A DNA stretch of 13,459 nucleotides, from UHGV virus genome UHGV-0077154; one strand, 5' to 3'. The first letter of the stretch is position 1. Every line of letters starts with the position of its first letter. The stretch is from a virus. The translations under genes and the position numbers were made by a program. Of the stretch, positions 2,335-13,459 are shown piece after piece. The notes beneath the pieces were generated by a model. The model had not been told where the DNA came from and did not search any database. It worked only from the letters and a program-made list of their open reading frames with translations.

Positions 2335-3325
2335 TTCCACAACCTGCCCCGTAGGTGTCCCGGCTCTTTATCCTCCAAGTTTACATTCTCCTGTTGAAAA
2401 TATCCCCGGCTCTGTTGGTGATCTGCTAGACCGTCAGCCCAGGCCCTCGGTGAAAAGCGCTTTTCTTCGCCAAATATCGCTACGTTATGCCTTCAGCGAC
2501 ACGCCTCACTGCAACAAGCAGTGCAGTTACACAATGCTGCTTTGGGCTGAGGCAAGGGAGATAACTTGATGTTTTGAAGTGCCTCTGTTCACTAATTGTA
2601 CAACCATTTAACATATTGTATCTTATAAGTACTTGACTGGAATGGTCAGGTATTGCTTTTCGGAGCGTTGATGCGAAGCGGAGTACACAACAACGATTTG
2701 ATCAACAGAAGGAAAGCATTCGGGAGGATTTGAGGTGAGTTCTCTTGTTCAAGGATTTTGGATGAGTTTGTCCGGTCACCACACAATTTCAGGTTTCAGG
2801 CCTTTGAAGCTGCCAGCGCATCTAACACGATGAAAGAGCATTTTTCTCTTTATCAGCAGAAAAAGAGCTACTACGGCGACGTTACCACAACGGGGTGAAG
2901 AACTATCGTCACCTGGCGAAATTCTCCCGCCCTTGCAGGTCACGGATACGTACCTTTTCCCGCACCAGCGCAAGCCTTCTCACCAATAGCCCCGTATGCT
3001 CCACCAGAAGCGCTACAGCGCGTCATCTCCACACAATTGTAAACTACACACCCATAGCACAGCGCCCCGCTGAGAAGCTCTGACACGCCCAGAAATGGAT
3101 GGTTTTTCGTTGATTTTGCGAAGAAAATTAATTTTTTCGGTATGGAAGGGCGGATCGGTAAACTGGTTTGACACGCATTTGGTTGACATATTTAACGCAT
3201 CCAGCCCCTGCGCGGGTTCGTTGTGTATCCGATACCATAACGATCACCACACCACACAGGCGAGCCAGTGACAACAGACAGGATTTTCTAGCAATTAACC
3301 GCAATTAACAGGTATTAAAGCTCTA

Positions 3326-3697: not shown

Positions 3698-3821
3698 AAT
3701 GTTTCCTTTTGTTCACTGATTGAACGAGGTTACTTACTTACCGCTGGAAGTGCCAGCAAGAAGGGATGACGCTGTGCTGTTAATCACTAGGTGAGGGGGT
3801 GTCTTCTACCAGAGGGGAGGC

Positions 3822-3916
3822 CATTGGTAAAGAATCTTAACTAACGTTAGTAAAGATCCTTAACCAGCCATTAGTAAAGAATCTTAACTAACCATTGGTA
3901 AAGATACTTAACCGTA
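3822..3916. repeat. Four tandem ~24-bp iterons (consensus about CATTG-GTAAAGA-ATCTTAAC), followed by an AT-rich stretch (3917-3970)
   Basis: GTAAAGA recurs at 3827, 3850, 3874 and 3898 (spacing 23/24/24 bp), with conserved flanks cattgGTAAAGAatcttaac. Downstream AT-rich DNA contains TAGATCA x2 and CTATATCA x2. Confidence 0.7.
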
Positions 3917-6511: not shown

Positions 6512-6892
6512 ATGACATTGAACAGCATTAAAAATGCTCTGTTTGCCGCTATGCACGGCATGACACCGGAGGAATACGAACTCCAAAAGGCGCGGGACAA
6601 TCTCAAGAGCGTCACCGATAACTTTCTGGATCAACATCCGGAGTTGCTCAAATCAGCCTCGTCTGACACCCCCACGGATAAACGGGGCGAAGCCCTCTCG
6701 CCAATGCGAGACACCTTTGGTGCTGAACAACGGATTAAAAAATCTTTGGGCGCTGATAGCCGTCCGGCGGTAAGTCATACCGCTGATCACATCGATCCTG
6801 AAATGCTGGCGAAAGCTAAAGCAGCGGCTGCTGCTCTCGCAAAATCTGACCCTGATCGTTACGGCAATATCATCAAGCAGCAGGGGGTGTGA
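6512..6892 (+). CDS. Hypothetical protein (126 aa)
   Basis: ORF with GGAG about 11 nt upstream; its stop overlaps the start of the next gene (GTGATGA), suggesting translational coupling. Ala/Lys-rich C-terminus. Confidence 0.55.
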   Translation: MTLNSIKNALFAAMHGMTPEEYELQKARDNLKSVTDNFLDQHPELLKSASSDTPTDKRGEALSPMRDTFGAEQRIKKSLGADSRPAVSHTADHIDPEMLAKAKAAAAALAKSDPDRYGNIIKQQGV

Positions 6893-9036
6893 TGGCGAAT
6901 GGCAATATCATAGTGACTGAAACCGTAAACGAGGTGACATGGTCTGTCGATCGGACAGCCTTCGGTCGCGCCCTGAAAGCTGTTAAATCCATCAAGGCTG
7001 CTCATGAGAAACCAGCTAAGGCGCTTGAGAAGGCCCAGAAGCGGACCGTCCAGAGTGAAGGCAAAGCCGCACTAGCAGCAGCGAAAGCCCAGACAGCGAA
7101 GCTACGCCAGGCTGAACAATTGTCTAAACAGCAACAGAAACAAGCTCAGATACAAGCCAAAATGGAGCGGGACGCAGTAGCCCACGCCAATAAAATGACC
7201 TCATTACAGGCGCGTCAGTTATCCCAACAGGAACAGGCAGCACGTCAGAATGCCCGTTTAGCAGCAATATCTGAAAAGGTGAGACAGGCGAGTCGCTCCC
7301 GCGCGATGACCTACACCCCAAACATGGGCGGTCAACATTACGATCCTGGTCTTGTTTCCCGTCAGACTGACGCAATGAACCGTGGTCACGGCGCTGTTGC
7401 TGCCGACATCGCAGCCACCAAAAAGGCGATGGCCCTGGAGGAGAAGCGCCAGCGTGAGAAAGAGGCAGGACTTAAGCGTGAGGTGACTTATTACAACAGT
7501 TTGCGCCGTAGCGCTTTGACTCTGGCAAACGTGAACGGCGCTGACGTTGCAACCCGTTATAAAGCGATCAGTGCAGCAAAAGAGGCACTCAAAGCCCAGA
7601 AAGAAGAGCGTTATACGGTCGAAGAGACCCGTTTCGAAATGGCCCGTATCACTACAGAATTACGCAAGCAGGCTCGTCTGCAACAACGTATTACCCGTGA
7701 GCAGAAAGCCGCAGGTGTTCGTGCTGGTCGTGTACGCACAGAAAGCCGTGGTGGAAGTGTAGGTCTGGCTGCCGCTGGTGTTGTTGGTGGTGCGGCGTTA
7801 GTAGGTAGTATGGGCGTTTCTCGTGTTGGTCAGACCCTTCAGGGAAGCCTTGAGCGTTCTCGCGATGTGAAAAAACTCCAGCAGTATGGGATCAGCAACC
7901 TTGAGTTCGCAGCACTTCAGGATCTATCAATGAGCCGTGTTGGTTACTCACTGAGTGCTGACAAGCTGGCTGACCTCAACAAGGACACAACCGAAAAGGC
8001 CGGGGAATTGCTGAATACTGGCTCTTTCAAACGTAACAAGAAAACTGGACAGGTGAATTTCAGCGGCGGTGGTGAGTTTGCAGATATCATCAATAACGTA
8101 CTGACCTCCACCAACGGCAACCAGAAGGTAGCCCAAAAGGTGATCGGGGAACTGCAAAAACTGGATTTTCCAACATTTATCACTTATCTAAAGCAATTAC
8201 AGAAAACTTTCGGCTGGACTGATCGACAGGTGCGACACCTGGCCGAGGCTGTGAATGATGGTTCGGTCTTCCTCGAAGTGTTCAATGATGAGGGGCAGGG
8301 ACTTATCCAGCGTATGAATCAACTCGCTTCTGAAGGATGGACCCTATCTGATGCACAGCAGGCCAACCTTGATAAGCTGGCAGCTTTGGGTGCTGAGTAC
8401 AGTCGCGTGCAGATGTCGCTTGCTGACCACTTCAGCGCCAGCTTCGTGCAGGGTCTGGGAGAATATGCAGCTAATACTGACACTCTACGTCAGAAGATGA
8501 CTGGACTGATCCCAATTTCCGATGCTCTCGGCGTTGCCCTTGGTGAGCTAACCACCAACATTCTCTCCTTCGCTGGTCGAGTCGGTGAAGAACTCAAGAA
8601 AGGCGCGACACTGCCGGATGCAGTCTACAACACCGTAGTGGATGACTCTGCAAATAGCACCGCCGATTGGATTAAGGAAAAGACCGGATTTGATCCACGC
8701 AGCATCGGTCAGACGCTCAAACAGATTTACCCGTGGCTGGATAGTTTCGCTCCGAGCAATATCGGCTCAGGCACGGCGTATAACGATCCAGCGCTAGCGT
8801 TGAATGTTCCTGGTTTCAACTCAATACAACCCCAGCAACCAACGTTTACGATTCCGACAATTGACAGCATGACGCAGCGACAGCCGATTCCTGTTGCGGT
8901 CACTGGCGAAGCTGAGATTAAACTCTCACCGCTTGATATTAACGTGAATGACGGCGCTATTAACGGTTTGATTGATACAAAACTGAGGAGCTATGAGCAG
9001 GCACAGAACAACATGATCCTTGGTATTGCTCAATGA
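6889..9036 (+). CDS. Large coiled-coil protein with central Gly/Ala-rich hydrophobic segment (715 aa); tape-measure-like or scaffold-like structural protein
   Basis: N-terminal ~270 aa are A/K/Q/R-rich heptad-like repeats (KAQTAKLRQAEQLSKQQQKQAQIQAKMERD). Central segment GGSVGLAAAGVVGGAALVGSMGV is TM-like. Sits immediately upstream of the D/E-like capsid genes. ATG at 6892 is the more likely start (GGGGG 4 nt upstream). Assignment is by architecture only. Confidence 0.55.
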   Translation: MMANGNIIVTETVNEVTWSVDRTAFGRALKAVKSIKAAHEKPAKALEKAQKRTVQSEGKAALAAAKAQTAKLRQAEQLSKQQQKQAQIQAKMERDAVAHANKMTSLQARQLSQQEQAARQNARLAAISEKVRQASRSRAMTYTPNMGGQHYDPGLVSRQTDAMNRGHGAVAADIAATKKAMALEEKRQREKEAGLKREVTYYNSLRRSALTLANVNGADVATRYKAISAAKEALKAQKEERYTVEETRFEMARITTELRKQARLQQRITREQKAAGVRAGRVRTESRGGSVGLAAAGVVGGAALVGSMGVSRVGQTLQGSLERSRDVKKLQQYGISNLEFAALQDLSMSRVGYSLSADKLADLNKDTTEKAGELLNTGSFKRNKKTGQVNFSGGGEFADIINNVLTSTNGNQKVAQKVIGELQKLDFPTFITYLKQLQKTFGWTDRQVRHLAEAVNDGSVFLEVFNDEGQGLIQRMNQLASEGWTLSDAQQANLDKLAALGAEYSRVQMSLADHFSASFVQGLGEYAANTDTLRQKMTGLIPISDALGVALGELTTNILSFAGRVGEELKKGATLPDAVYNTVVDDSANSTADWIKEKTGFDPRSIGQTLKQIYPWLDSFAPSNIGSGTAYNDPALALNVPGFNSIQPQQPTFTIPTIDSMTQRQPIPVAVTGEAEIKLSPLDINVNDGAINGLIDTKLRSYEQAQNNMILGIAQ

Positions 9037-9132
9037 TGAAACAGAGGGTGGCGAATTCGTCGCCCCTATCTCAACACCACAATGCGTATGTATCAAATTT
9101 AGCGACAAATCAAATACTTTTCGTGAAATTTG

Positions 9133-9161
9133 TTGTAAATGATAATCATTCGTGTTAAAAT
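9133..9161 (+). promoter_or_regulatory. Sigma70-like promoter (TTGTAA-17-TAAAAT) overlapped by a Fur-box-like element
   Basis: AATGATAATCATT at 9138-9150 matches the central 13 of the 19-bp Fur consensus GATAATGATAATCATTATC (14/19 overall); -35 at 9133-9138, -10 at 9156-9161. Confidence 0.4.
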
Positions 9162-9167
9162 AATATA

Positions 9168-9542
9168 CAAGGTGAATTACAACAGCCAAATGTTTTTCCC
9201 TTCTCCTTAGGAATCAAAGTGCGCTTTTCCCAGAGCGCCTTTTCTCATACAGCCAATATCCGCACCCTCTCACGGTAAGGTTAGGCCATTGCCGCTGGCT
9301 GTATCAGAAAAGCATCGCAGAGCGATTAGCCAGCAGGCTAACCCGTTCTCGTGTGTAGAAAATTTCCACCTAAGGTGGATTTGCCAAAAGTCCTGTCCTC
9401 CTCGGCGGGCTGTCAGCCGGACACTAACGGCATCAGGTGGCAACGTTTTTGGGTCTCCTTACCCATTCTTTGGAGCGTTGCCGCCTCCTCATTCCTACCA
9501 GTGAAATTCACACCGGACGACTCTCCGTCCGGTCACTTTTTT
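9168..9542 (+). ncRNA. Candidate non-coding transcript/leader between the Fur-box promoter and a strong terminator; possibly a short ~80-nt form ending at a weak hairpin (9221-9246)
   Basis: No credible ORF here (the track ORFs are R/P-rich with no SD). Several hairpins: TTAGCC-AGCA-GGCTAA, TCCACC-TAA-GGTGGA, GCGCT-N8-AGCGC followed by CTTTTCTC. Ends at the intrinsic terminator 9513-9542. Confidence 0.3.
9513..9542 (+). terminator. Rho-independent terminator
   Basis: Stem CCGGACG (9513-9519), loop ACTCTC, stem CGTCCGG (9526-9532), then TCACTTTTTT. Confidence 0.7.
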
Positions 9543-9610
9543 CATCGGAACAATTCTAAAGGCTGGCCCTGTCGCCGTTTACGGCTCAAGCAGGCGCTGG
9601 CCTTTTGTTT

Positions 9611-9622
9611 ACATAGCTATGT
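9611..9622. promoter_or_regulatory. 12-bp perfect palindrome ACATAGCTATGT about 22 bp upstream of the D-like gene SD
   Basis: Exact self-complementary 12-mer; candidate operator/activator site for the capsid operon. Confidence 0.35.
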
Positions 9623-9645
9623 GAAATTTAACGGGAGTTAATTAT

Positions 9646-9987
9646 ATGAAAATGGGAAGCCTTGAGCGCTCTTACAATGACGTGATCGCGTATGCAGCCG
9701 ATCCGAATTTTGACCGCAAGACTATTACTGTCGATCTAGCTGTAGAAGTCCAGCCGGGTAGTTGCATTACCAGCACTGGAGCTGCTTATGTCTCTGGTGA
9801 TGACTGCCTGCTGGTCCTGAGCCACCACAGGGCCGAAGATGCTGCTCATATCATCGTTGCTGATCGCGGGATTTACATCAAACAAGACACCATCACCGCT
9901 GTTATGGGCGCTACCGCTGGCGCTAATGCTATTGCCGCACTCACCAAAACGGGCGCAATCCGTACTAGCGCACCGGACGCAGAATAA
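9646..9987 (+). CDS. Lambda gpD-like head decoration protein (113 aa), tentative
   Basis: Size (113 aa vs 110 for lambda D), position directly upstream of the E-like gene, and a Gly/Ala/Thr-rich beta-type composition (TITVDLAVEVQPGSCITSTGAAYVSGDD...TAGANAIAALTKTGAIRTS). SD GGGAG 8 nt before ATG. Confidence 0.45.
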   Translation: MKMGSLERSYNDVIAYAADPNFDRKTITVDLAVEVQPGSCITSTGAAYVSGDDCLLVLSHHRAEDAAHIIVADRGIYIKQDTITAVMGATAGANAIAALTKTGAIRTSAPDAE

Positions 9988-10005
9988 TAATAAGGAGAAG
10001 ACAAC

Positions 10006-11040
10006 ATGGGACTATCAACCAATTTCAGCTACGCGGATTACACCAACACCTTTGTGAACATGGATGCAAAGAACACTTTGCTGTCCACGCTTAATGTTTT
10101 CAGTGATCGTCAGACTTCTGCAAGTCCGAAGGTGAGCCTCGATATCATTGATGAAGTCGCTCAGAAGGTGGCAAGCTCTGTTAATCGTTACGGTTCAGAG
10201 TGGTCAACCATTCCTAAGCGTAGCGCTAGCAATCACCTGATTGAAGCTCCACTTTATGCTTTTCAAGACCGGATTACAGCGGCAGACGTGCAACCATATC
10301 GCAAACCAGGCTCCGACCTGCAAATGTCTGTAATGGATGCGGTCACTTCTTCTGCTGTCGCAATGCACGATAAGTACATGCGTACTAAAGAGAAAATTTT
10401 CGCTGACGCACTCTTCCGAAATACTGTCGAAGCGACCTACACCCAGCAGCCGATCATTTCCTGGGAAGATGAATTTGGATACCAACAGGCAACCGGAACG
10501 ATCAAAACCAGCGTTAGCTCTGGTGACCCACTTCGCAGCCTCGATGATGCAGTAACCGCTGCTAAAGTGCGCATGGGGGGCCTGGCTGGTCAGCTTGATG
10601 GATTTATCCTGTTTGCAGGTAGCAATGTTTATCGCGGCATTAAGTATCACCCTGATGTTCGTCAGAATGTTCAGTTCGGTGTGCTTGATCGGGATGTTCT
10701 GTTTAATAAAGAAGTGCTTCCGGCATTCTCAACATTCATCATTGAAAATGTTCGAGTGGTGGAGGTCACGGATCAGGCACTTTACGGAATTGGTCCGGAT
10801 GAATCCTTCCTGGTTCCACGTTTCAGCCGCCCACTGTCCTCTGATATTGCTCTACCTTTCGGTTATGTAGCAACGGCTACCAGCCGCAATCTTGATCTGG
10901 CATTTGCTGATCCGGTTGATTTCCGTATCTGGAGCGTACAGGACAAGTTTAAGAACGTGGAGCTATTCGCGGAAAGCTCAATCTTGCCTGTGGTGTACCG
11001 TCCGGATTTCGTTACAAAACTGACGAACGACGCAGCGTAA
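10006..11040 (+). CDS. Major capsid protein, lambda gpE-like family (344 aa)
   Basis: Strong SD AAGGAGAAG. Length 344 aa vs 341 for lambda E. C-terminal region ...VVYRPDFVTKLT resembles lambda E ...LADPDEFVSVQLA. Gene order decoration-then-capsid as in lambda. A hairpin at 11053-11074 (TGGGGC-N10-GCCCCA) follows the stop. Confidence 0.6.
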   Translation: MGLSTNFSYADYTNTFVNMDAKNTLLSTLNVFSDRQTSASPKVSLDIIDEVAQKVASSVNRYGSEWSTIPKRSASNHLIEAPLYAFQDRITAADVQPYRKPGSDLQMSVMDAVTSSAVAMHDKYMRTKEKIFADALFRNTVEATYTQQPIISWEDEFGYQQATGTIKTSVSSGDPLRSLDDAVTAAKVRMGGLAGQLDGFILFAGSNVYRGIKYHPDVRQNVQFGVLDRDVLFNKEVLPAFSTFIIENVRVVEVTDQALYGIGPDESFLVPRFSRPLSSDIALPFGYVATATSRNLDLAFADPVDFRIWSVQDKFKNVELFAESSILPVVYRPDFVTKLTNDAA

Positions 11041-12092: not shown

Positions 12093-12118
12093 AAAAAGGC
12101 GCAATAGCGCCTTTTTTT
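12093..12118. terminator. Bidirectional rho-independent terminator (AAAAAGGCGC-AATA-GCGCCTTTTTTT)
   Basis: Perfect GGCGC/GCGCC stem with a 4-nt loop, flanked by an A-run and a T-run; sits between the convergent cassette gene 2 and integrase 3' ends. Confidence 0.8.
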
Positions 12119-13313
12119 ACAAATCCGGATAACACGCCAACTCGACATACTCCGATAGTTCCTTCATCCCTGGCCCTTTGCTGTAGGTTCTGAATGCTTC
12201 GGTTTTCGCTTTTTGTTCGGTATGTCCAGTGATGGCTCCGATCCGTTGTTCTGGCACCCCTGCACGGTCTAAGCAGGTGATGAACATTCCCCGTAAGCTG
12301 TGAAAACATTGCCGATCTGTAGCGGTTGGCAATGTGCTGTCACGTAGCCGGGTAAACTTTTGGCTGTACCACGGACCCCGCTTACCATCCTTCCGAATGA
12401 TGTTATTAGACTGAGCCAGAAGATATTCACCGCTGTTATTTGCCAGATGCTTATCAACAATCCCCATCAGCAGCGAGTGGATCGGAACATACCGCACCCC
12501 GGCTACAGTCTTGGACTTGCTGACAAAGAAACATCTGACACCCTCCAACATTACAATTTCATCCCGCTTGATGCTGGCGATCTCATCAAGTCGCATTCCT
12601 GAATACAGCCCAATCAGTATGACATCGCGTAGAACGTCATCCGCTTCTCTGACAAGTGTTTGCAATTGTTCAGGTTCAAACGGCTGATAACTTTCTATCG
12701 TGCGACGTGCTTCGAGGTTATGACCGTGAAACGGGTTACTGTCGGGGATTGCGTCATATCGACGTTTGGCGAACTCGTACAGACTCCCTAAAGAGGTTAG
12801 CCAGTTTTGCACGGTCTGCGGTGCTGCCTTTTTCTGTTGGCCTTCAATGAAGTCTGTAACCGTTCTGCGTCCTATCTTGTTCAGACTAATATCAACTTTA
12901 CCGATACTCTGGAGAAATACTTCCACCGCTCGCGCGGATTTGCTGAGTGTGGAAAATGCCCGACGTTCACTATAAACCGTCATGTATTCATCACGGATGA
13001 CTGCCAACGTTGGGATAGGGGAGACTGCTACAGGCGTACTCTTGGCCTGTTTGATTGTGGTGTGGAGTGTGGTGATCGCATTCTGGATGCGAATGTCTTC
13101 CCGATCAGGATTCAACAGGGCTTTCAGATTGTTGAACTCAATCAACATGTGATTTCTGAAGTGACGAGCCTTAAGGATGTCTTTTGTCCCGGTGGATTTT
13201 CGCCAGGCTCGTTTGTTGTCAAACAGGTGACGCATGTACGCAGGTACAAAGACCTGAAAGATCCATACGCCCGAATGACTTTGAAAAAGATACTGATTGT
13301 TCTTGATAGACAT
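12117..13313 (-). CDS. int: Tyrosine recombinase / phage-type integrase (398 aa)
   Basis: C-terminal catalytic motifs: GMRLDEI (Arg box I), HSLRGMFITCLDRAGVPEQRIGAITGH (H-x-x-R box II), FRTYSKG (catalytic Tyr). SD AGAGGA about 8 nt upstream of ATG; gene lies next to attR. Confidence 0.9.
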   Translation of the reverse strand: MSIKNNQYLFQSHSGVWIFQVFVPAYMRHLFDNKRAWRKSTGTKDILKARHFRNHMLIEFNNLKALLNPDREDIRIQNAITTLHTTIKQAKSTPVAVSPIPTLAVIRDEYMTVYSERRAFSTLSKSARAVEVFLQSIGKVDISLNKIGRRTVTDFIEGQQKKAAPQTVQNWLTSLGSLYEFAKRRYDAIPDSNPFHGHNLEARRTIESYQPFEPEQLQTLVREADDVLRDVILIGLYSGMRLDEIASIKRDEIVMLEGVRCFFVSKSKTVAGVRYVPIHSLLMGIVDKHLANNSGEYLLAQSNNIIRKDGKRGPWYSQKFTRLRDSTLPTATDRQCFHSLRGMFITCLDRAGVPEQRIGAITGHTEQKAKTEAFRTYSKGPGMKELSEYVELACYPDL

Positions 13314-13375: not shown

Positions 13376-13459
13376 AACGAGAGCTTCCCAAGCTCTATAC
13401 GAGGGTTCGATTCCCTTCGCCCGCTCCAGTCTCCTCATAAATTAACAAGTTATAATTTA
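13376..13459. repeat. attR: partial tRNA-Gly 3' copy (60 bp perfect to 13435) plus imperfect extension to the window end
   Basis: Identical to 2-61; the sequence upstream (caatgtcgggatggagt) does not match the tRNA 5' half, so this is the truncated copy. Confidence 0.8.

Follow-up and report, generated by a model that had tools for sequence, protein, structure and literature searches.

The 13,459-nt stretch of viral DNA analysed here (the window; UHGV virus genome UHGV-0077154) carries a 609-nt non-coding gap (9037–9645) between open reading frames (ORFs) for a 715-amino-acid (aa) and a 113-aa protein, directly upstream of a D-like/capsid gene pair. On the plus strand, the gap holds a promoter (P1), a structured non-coding RNA that runs from a predicted start at ~9167–9169 to a terminator, T2 (9168–9542, supported by its fold and by a covariance model), and a further terminator, T3. 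The RNA is 375 nt long to T2, and ~445 nt long when T2 is read through to T3. The two genes that follow on the same strand are a 113-aa D-like gene (9646–9987), which occupies the position of lambda D and has no family match, and a gene for a major capsid protein of the lambda-E type (10006–11040; PF03864, Phage_cap_E, E = 4.6e-14). The RNA is a structured family that is absent from Rfam and previously uncatalogued; Rfam 15, searched at gathering and at permissive thresholds with the window and six diverse homologues, gave nothing in this region.

For comparison, 69 loci were gathered from genomes, metagenomes and viral contigs, mostly by way of the capsid protein, and 11 close relatives of 9375–9500 served to build a covariance model. 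The model found exactly one match per locus, always on the plus strand, in 45 loci (E-values from 1e-40 to 0.03), and three further loci with a match were found beyond these 45. Folding of the plus strand from 9168 to 9612 gave −171.6 kcal/mol (z = −7.1 relative to shuffles), compared with z = −3.6 for the minus strand. Standard pairs fill 94.9% of the alignment cells; shuffles reach 74.5%, and sliding the partners gives no more than 54%. The first-pass annotation had proposed covariation across related islands as a check on the RNA. Once run, this analysis gave a strong signal in the 3′ domain, including an H-type pseudoknot, with double-sided (compensatory) changes in 29 of 34 pairs, and these changes support a common structure on one strand. 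That strand is fixed as plus by the frequent G–U pairs, many of which would be A–C on the opposite strand. One helix of the pseudoknot, S1, was not part of the covariance model and therefore serves as an independent check; it is paired in 96% of cases and shows CG/UA and GC/AU swaps. The earlier description of ~400 nt without coding potential also held up. Internal ORFs have no Pfam match, and the length of the homologous region varies from 105 to 129 nt by steps that are not multiples of 3, which argues against a reading frame. A search for stop-free frames was uninformative, the sequence being poor in stop codons.

From its 5′ end, the predicted RNA opens with a single-stranded pyrimidine segment, AUGUUUUUCCCUUCUCCUUA (9190–9209), which is antisense to the capsid ribosome-binding site (RBS) and start codon. 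The hairpin that follows, also labelled P1 (9221–9245; GCGCU..AGCGC, then CUUUUCU), doubles as terminator T1. Its stem shows compensatory changes among alleles, and its U-tract is found in the window's clade only. The 5′ domain (9247–9304) consists of a long-range stem, P2 (9247–9255 with 9296–9304), and an inner hairpin (9260–9262 with 9273–9275) that displays the loop CACCCUCUCA (9263–9272). When nine alleles of the window's clade were folded together with RNAalifold, 7 of the 23 pairs in this domain were compensatory. Further downstream, hairpin Ha (9365–9370 with 9374–9379) leads into a conserved single-stranded stretch, GGAUUUGCC, the whole spanning 9365–9385, and the sequence GGRUUUGCC is almost invariant. 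Hairpin Hb (9392–9409), in which four of six pairs are compensatory, has a loop composed purely of pyrimidines, CUCCUC (9398–9403); across 34 distinct sequences this loop is 98% pyrimidine while its stem covaries. The H-type pseudoknot (9411–9431) is formed by S1 (9411–9414 with 9420–9423) and S2 (9416–9419 with 9428–9431), and all four pairs of S2 are compensatory, as are all 15 of the long stem P5 (9435–9449 with 9472–9486). P5 is capped by hairpin P6 (9450–9454 with 9461–9465; loop CUCCUU). An unpaired pyrimidine tract, CCUCAUUCCUACCA (9487–9500), preceded by CCGCCU, follows; it is pyrimidine-rich in all clades and has a mean probability of being unpaired of 0.81. Many relatives (for instance L036 at 3090–3110, and L042) carry a GAAA-tetraloop hairpin, GGAUUC-GAAA-GAGUCU, ~20 nt into the RNA, which the window's allele lacks.

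The loops and single strands of this RNA hold five to six pyrimidine motifs that resemble an anti-Shine-Dalgarno (anti-SD) sequence, and CUUCUCCUUA, the segment singled out in the first-pass annotation, is one copy among them. The copies lie at 9200–9209, 9263–9272 and 9398–9403, in the loop of P6 (CUCCUU(A), 9455–9461), in the tract CCGCCUCCUCAUUCC (9481–9495) and in the loop of T2 (9519–9525). In the predicted fold of the read-through transcript, those other than 9200–9209 are unpaired with probabilities of 0.81–0.96. No hexamer is more enriched in the family than UCUCCU. In 20 representative RNAs, TCTCCT was counted 39 times where 4.3 were expected and CTCCTC 34 times where 4.6 were, figures in which kinship overstates the independence of the counts; GGAG is found only 0–2 times per RNA. 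C (0.26–0.31) exceeds G (0.21–0.24) in the base content of the RNAs. With the base that follows it, the P6 loop reads CUCCUUA, the terminal 7 nt of the 16S rRNA of E. coli, and CUCCUUA and CCUCCU correspond to the 16S rRNA 3′ end.

In every relative with enough intact upstream sequence the RNA precedes the D-like/E-like pair, whatever the genes further upstream, and it spans three capsid clades, down to 31% capsid identity. The third clade is represented by locus L067 (2655–4610, minus strand), where a closely similar promoter, leader RNA and terminators stand before a capsid gene whose product is 31% identical. Since L067 has the same RNA with so divergent a capsid, the RNA is better conserved than the protein that it precedes. 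When the gap is compared with that of the E. coli LWY24 island, the flanks are ~98% identical and the centre (9206–9486) is heavily diverged, with stems swapped for different complementary sequences. On the evidence of such alignments, we regard the RNA as assembled from recombining modules. The comparison of window 9030–9650 with L001 8990–9570 is a mosaic in which the promoter and 5′ end, and the stretch from T2 through T3 to the RBS, are ~98% identical, with a different allele in the 280 nt at the centre. Further strains of E. coli (such as 90-1) have the central allele in common and not the flanks. At tRNA-Phe of E. coli G3/10 there is a degenerate copy (L065, 8683–9156) in which insertion sequence (IS) elements replace the promoter and the RNA, the D-like and capsid genes remaining; this remnant was uninformative for comparison of the RNA and was set aside.

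Promoter P1 (9133–9161), found by a promoter scan, has a −35 element TTGTAA (9133–9138) and a −10 element TAAAAT (9156–9161), and TG at 9153–9154 makes it an extended −10 promoter (TGtTAAAAT). The hexamers stand 17 nt apart, within the 16–18 nt of sigma-70 promoters, and the −10 element is conserved. In most loci TGNTAAAAT is present once, at a distance of 850–1000 nt before the capsid ATG, irrespective of the genes upstream. The near-consensus promoter described in the first-pass annotation is thus real by conservation, one TGnTAAAAT recurring at the same place in most related loci. Scans of the window, L036 and L067 gave no other sigma-70-like promoter on the same strand before the capsid genes.

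The 17-bp spacer of P1 holds a Fur-box-like operator (9135–9153) that matches GATAATGATAATCATTATC at 14 of 19 positions. Its core, AATGATAATCATT, lies exactly at 9138–9150 and agrees with the Fur core at all 13 positions, as had been claimed; it is the single such site in the window, where 0.03 matches would be expected by chance at no more than one mismatch. The box overlaps the core promoter. Fur-like boxes scoring at least 13/19 are present in 17 of 40 distinct promoter variants, and so the box is not family-wide; in L007, one of the 17, it lies upstream of the −35 hexamer and not in the spacer. Scores of 16–17/19 are reached by the spacer boxes of L034, L036, L038, L043, L063 and L064, and that of L034, TTGATAATGATTATCATTAGTGGTAAAAT, is built like the aerobactin promoter. 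Matches of 16/19 or better number seven in the 69 loci (~0.5 Mb), and every one of them lies at or just upstream of P1. The remaining variants carry different palindromes in the spacer, such as TGAAAG-N5-GTTTCA. Scores against the Fur consensus within the spacer are bimodal (8–12 and 13–17), and the Fur-like variants occur in two deep clades, beside two unrelated types of upstream genes. Taken by its sequence and placement, the putative Fur box is not a chance match, and the spacer behaves as what may be called an exchangeable operator slot, filled in this island by the putative Fur box. Fur control is likely for this island and would be optional for the family; with the Fur box as one of several interchangeable operators, iron control would be a property of some islands and not of the family. 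There is precedent for Fur at a mobile element in E. coli CFT073, where it directly represses the island regulator alpA (PMC7157518).

Other short elements lie in and around the RNA. A box, GTGAAATTT, lies directly upstream of the −35 element (9123–9131, plus strand), and boxes related to it (CGTCAAAT.. and CGTGAAATTT) stand at the same place in relatives. A second, GTGAA-A-TTCAC, is a perfect palindrome between the pyrimidine tract and T2 (9501–9511). The third, GTGAAATTTAAC (9621–9632), is found 14 nt before the D-like ATG, just ahead of its RBS; other clades have an equivalent, CGTCAATTCTGACG, after T3, and in relatives CGTCAAT(T/A)NTGACG occupies the first and third positions. The window thus has three copies of a GTGAAATT box (9123–9131, 9501–9511 and 9621–9632), and these are probably binding sites for a protein. 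In the first transcribed bases (9162–9180), a conserved motif, A(A/G)GGTGAT(T)AAT, keeps a fixed distance from the −10 element and contains TAGGGT or CAAGGT. This motif might cause a sigma-dependent pause close to the promoter, as happens at lambda PR′. For the conserved 5′ motif CUGCGUACNACAGCC, GGCUGU and the capsid start codon were considered as pairing partners and dropped, since on inspection neither pairing is kept in other clades. A promoter-like site on the minus strand (TTGGCT-16-TATATT, 9160–9189) overlaps the start region of P1 and faces away from the RNA.

The claim that the RNA ends in terminators was borne out by three sites on the plus strand, each a GC-rich hairpin with a U-tract. 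T1 consists of 9221–9238 followed by CUUUUCU. T2 (9512–9543) has a hairpin at 9512–9533 with the loop ACUCUC, then six U residues. T3 (9558–9610) is a long GC-rich hairpin (~9558–9605) followed by UUUUGUUU, and only 34 nt separate it from the D-like ATG in the window. Terminator-like sites number six, against 1.3 expected. A terminator at the position of T2 is present in nearly every locus, with a stem that is unrelated between clades and a CU-rich loop (AUCUCC, UCUCCC). In most cases another terminator comes after it, and the counterpart of T3 elsewhere reads AGGUCGCC..GGCGACCU followed by CUUUUG. A riboswitch-like alternative pairing of the 3′ domain with T2 was looked for by inspection, and none is conserved. 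Since T1–T3 intervene and P1 is the sole sigma-70-like promoter found, the capsid genes appear to be reachable only by read-through of the leader terminators. No other observation argues as strongly for a functional link in cis between the RNA and the capsid operon as capsid genes that stand behind terminators without a visible promoter of their own.

The 10-nt complementarity reported in the first-pass annotation is exact, CTTCTCCTTA at 9200–9209 on the plus strand being the reverse complement of 9991–10000. The target of the 5′ segment comprises the capsid RBS UAAGGAGAAG and start codon (9991–10008, plus strand), and the pairing extends through AUGUU (9190–9194) with AACAU (10003–10007), so that two start-codon bases are covered and the total reaches 15 bp. 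Only 18 of 2000 shuffles of the RNA had a contiguous complement of at least 10 nt to the capsid initiation region (p ~0.009). Contiguous length was used in place of a ranking of the island's start regions by RNAduplex energy, in which the capsid gene was not outstanding. Six alleles of the window's clade keep 9–13 contiguous complementary nucleotides (duplex z from −2.3 to −4.8), and in L006, with 13, the 5′ segment comes close to being a complete antisense copy of the region around the capsid start. In L007 and L008 the pyrimidine tract matches the RBS of the D-like gene instead, over 9–10 nt.

Our preferred reading, which we hold tentatively, is that the structured leader RNA of 375–445 nt gates the capsid genes by termination, with masking of the capsid RBS as a second layer, and that the whole forms a default-off switch. 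P1 would fire once nothing occupies its operator, which in this island would happen as iron runs short and Fur comes off the DNA. Most of the resulting transcripts would be terminated non-coding RNAs, of ~80 nt when RNA polymerase stops at T1 and of 375–445 nt when it stops at T2 or T3, and the D/E mRNA, hence capsid expression, would arise only through read-through. The segment 9190–9209 would pair with the capsid RBS and start codon, within the read-through transcript or in trans, and mask translation. Such a two-level off switch (termination and RBS masking) would be relieved by a signal, probably one from a helper phage.

Several observations weigh against this reading. The 10-nt motif is deleted in L001 and L017 (the E. 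coli LWY24 type), which have the same capsid RBS; in L002 and L007 the pairing is down to a generic anti-SD core of 6–7 nt, and in L008 to ~4 nt. Where capsid identity falls to 53% and 31%, in the two other clades, extended pairing with the RBS does not reach significance. Given its absence from all of these, extended RBS pairing cannot be the family-wide function. In folds of the read-through transcript the capsid SD pairs with the first 110 nt of the RNA at a probability of ~1.0 in seven close alleles, a weak test in that shuffling these 110 nt still gave a mean of 0.49, with 3 of 14 shuffles at 0.9 or above. With the capsid RBS 3 nt past the stop codon of the D-like gene, the mask might yield to ribosomes that translate D. 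The alignment in which covariation was scored had, except at S1, been fitted to the structure of the model. Lastly, so large a conserved, pseudoknotted scaffold is more than termination and antisense pairing need. The question of pairing or chance has a divided answer, in that the complementarity is statistically unusual and is kept at 9–13 nt in close alleles, but is not family-wide. Of the iron-responsive small RNA (sRNA) or leader that masks capsid translation, as first proposed, the Fur box stands for this island and some others, the extended RBS pairing stands for the window's own clade, and neither extends to the whole family. A simple antisense sRNA does not explain a conserved, covarying, pseudoknotted RNA of ~400 nt. 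RBS masking is plausible, judged from the sequence, as a lineage-specific layer and not as a conserved function.

A scaffold of this kind might instead act on a conserved host machine, an idea to which we give a smaller share of belief than to the gated leader. The RNA, in that case a new class of regulatory RNA in satellites, would be either a self-contained antiterminator that binds RNA polymerase and serves the capsid genes, or a multivalent mimic of the 16S 3′ end whose CUCCUUA and CCUCCU loops capture SDs. In the latter form, equally speculative, translation would be re-programmed during helper infection, and host regulators such as Fur would plug into the operator slot.

More specific accounts share parts of the same evidence. 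One that we consider unlikely, though deserving of attention, is processive antitermination of the kind known from HK022 put and the Bacillus EAR element, in which the 3′ domain would bind its own RNA polymerase and read through T2 and T3; capsid expression would then depend, with the same low likelihood, only on derepression of P1. A structured RNA followed by tandem strong terminators and essential structural genes with no promoter between, in all three clades, speaks for it. The conservation of the RNA beyond that of the capsid (31%) is as expected for a conserved host partner such as RNA polymerase, and inspection gave no alternative terminator/antiterminator pairing. However, the RNA was not shown to resemble put or EAR in sequence or structure, its folded domain is preceded by T1, and the pyrimidine loops would be left without a role. 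These loops, several of them unpaired, anti-SD-like and borne on a covarying scaffold, are what a stand-alone, Fur-controlled, trans-acting RNA would use to pair with the SDs of host or helper mRNAs, its proximity to the capsid genes being mere synteny. A strong, regulated promoter and terminators that belong to the RNA itself fit this account, in which it would work like S. aureus RNAIII/RsaE or B. subtilis FsrA, and the segment from the start to T1 is laid out as a seed region plus terminator. We hold it improbable to a similar degree, because the RNA was never seen away from the D/E pair, including in a capsid-independent scan of viral contigs for the promoter-plus-leader pattern, and because the capsid genes would then have no visible promoter; many island genes have GGAG-type RBSs, which makes the specificity of targeting unclear.

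The arrangement also matches lambda PR′–tR′ in its strong promoter, variable element between −35 and −10, early motif, and terminators before structural genes. P1 could accordingly be a late promoter served by a Q-like or AlpA-like antiterminator of the helper, with the spacer as its loading site, the RNA as a by-product like 6S and the conserved −10-like element in the first transcribed bases as a sigma-dependent pause. We rate this account as decidedly improbable. Covariation in 29 of 34 pairs and a pseudoknot, both kept from clade to clade, would not be seen in a by-product, spacers that score 16–17/19 against the Fur consensus indicate Fur and not Q, and no sequence homology to lambda PR′ was seen. 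It is very doubtful that the RNA titrates a protein, its five to six pyrimidine loops binding a host factor such as Rho (which favours YC-rich RNA) as a decoy or loading site. Repeated CU-rich loops on a conserved scaffold do resemble the design of a sponge RNA, and C does exceed G, but the case is by analogy only and the strong intrinsic terminators make Rho unnecessary. An element that works as DNA, such as a packaging site or replication origin, or a chance similarity, is scarcely credible. A satellite needs a cos or pac site, none was located, and the region is non-coding; strand-specific covariation with G–U pairs nevertheless contradicts a role as DNA, no match to a lambda-type cosN was found in the region, and origin-like iterons lie elsewhere, at 3820–3916.

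The gene content around the RNA is that of a satellite-like element. A direct repeat of 84 nt (2–85 and 13376–13459; copies 13,374 bp apart and 96% identical) consists of the 3′ part of tRNA-Gly and ~30 nt past the end of the tRNA. This points either to a window that spans one unit of a tandem array or to attL and attR copies with extended identity. The window as a whole is a single unit of an integrative 13.4-kb island, inserted at tRNA-Gly. It encodes a tyrosine integrase (12117–13313, minus strand) and several proteins of unknown function. The 715-aa protein (6889–9036) has no Pfam or NCBIfam match and only weak matches to "tape measure" families of PHROG. The integrase, flanking att repeats, size within 10–15 kb and PF03864-type capsid gene are features of phage-inducible chromosomal islands (PICIs), and PF03864 capsid proteins have been reported in 356 published PICIs (PMC13230959). 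An alpA regulator and a primase/replicase gene, also part of that pattern, were not found: none of the island proteins matched AlpA or a primase in Pfam, NCBIfam or PHROG. With neither recognised, the island is satellite-like and not a canonical PICI. Four tandem repeats of ~24 nt (GCCATTGGTAAAGAATCTTAACTAAC and variants) in a non-coding gap at 3820–3916 look like the iterons of an island replication origin. A tblastn search of 50,697 deposited phage genomes with the capsid protein gave no match at E ≤ 1e-5, and this capsid lineage seems to be confined to islands. BLAST of the non-coding region against the 50,697 phage records gave only chance matches of 33 nt, and no helper or phage counterpart was identified among them. 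A relationship between the D-like and the 715-aa proteins was considered and rejected; they have only the hexapeptide GSLERS in common and are otherwise not significantly similar. GSLERS, in frame in the 715-aa protein and at the D-like N-terminus, corresponds to a 26-nt DNA repeat that is 85% identical (7842–7867 and 9654–9679).

Among known systems, the c4 RNA of P1/P7 and the CI RNA of P4 (C4 in Rfam) are small leader-encoded RNAs that pair downstream in the same transcript, including with an RBS, and keep genes off. The likeness lies in a leader-encoded riboregulator, and P4 is also a satellite. The present RNA differs from both in having no Rfam match, in being four to five times longer and pseudoknotted with multiple anti-SD loops, and in its target, which would be a capsid gene where theirs is an antirepressor or replication gene. 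In the IsrK system, the short form of the RNA controls, by activating it, translation of the long mRNA. For Gifsy-1 IsrK, one promoter is reported to yield a short terminated RNA and a long read-through mRNA (PMC4825925). The shared 5′ segment would repress in the present case, whereas IsrK activates, and there is no sequence relation between the two. In lambda PR′–6S–tR′, too, a strong promoter yields a short terminated leader RNA, and only read-through reaches the structural genes; 6S, however, is not known as a conserved structured RNA, whereas here structural selection is strong and the spacer is Fur-like and not Q-like. HK022 put and EAR are comparable as folded nascent RNAs upstream of terminators within an operon, with a pseudoknot in EAR, but they are likened by layout alone, no similarity having been demonstrated.

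Multi-hairpin RNAs with C/U-rich apical loops complementary to SDs are found in S. aureus RNAIII and RsaE and in B. subtilis FsrA, the last under Fur control. These belong to a different phylum and are not homologous, and the present RNA is tied to the capsid genes of a mobile element; a sub-threshold RsaE match at 9123–9245 (18 bits against a gathering threshold of 79) reflects composition only. With RyhB the RNA has in common a Fur box that overlaps the promoter of a non-coding RNA, but it has no Rfam match to RyhB, is four times longer and structured, and has the Fur box in some alleles only. By analogy, then, its closest relatives in working would be the leader riboregulators c4, CI and IsrK, and it is a member of none of these groups. 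We regard the RNA as a new structured family within the regulatory leader RNAs of phages and satellites.

To our knowledge, little is understood of how phage satellites time the expression of their own capsid genes, and only a few of them (P4, PLE) have known RNA-based control. The locus described here adds a structured RNA family of considerable size from Enterobacterales, including E. coli, that Rfam does not contain. It offers a testable RNA with a clear anatomy (promoter, operator slot, pseudoknot, anti-SD loops and tandem terminators) and with natural allelic variation. It also presents a plausible link, through Fur, between the iron status of the host and the morphogenesis genes of a mobile element.

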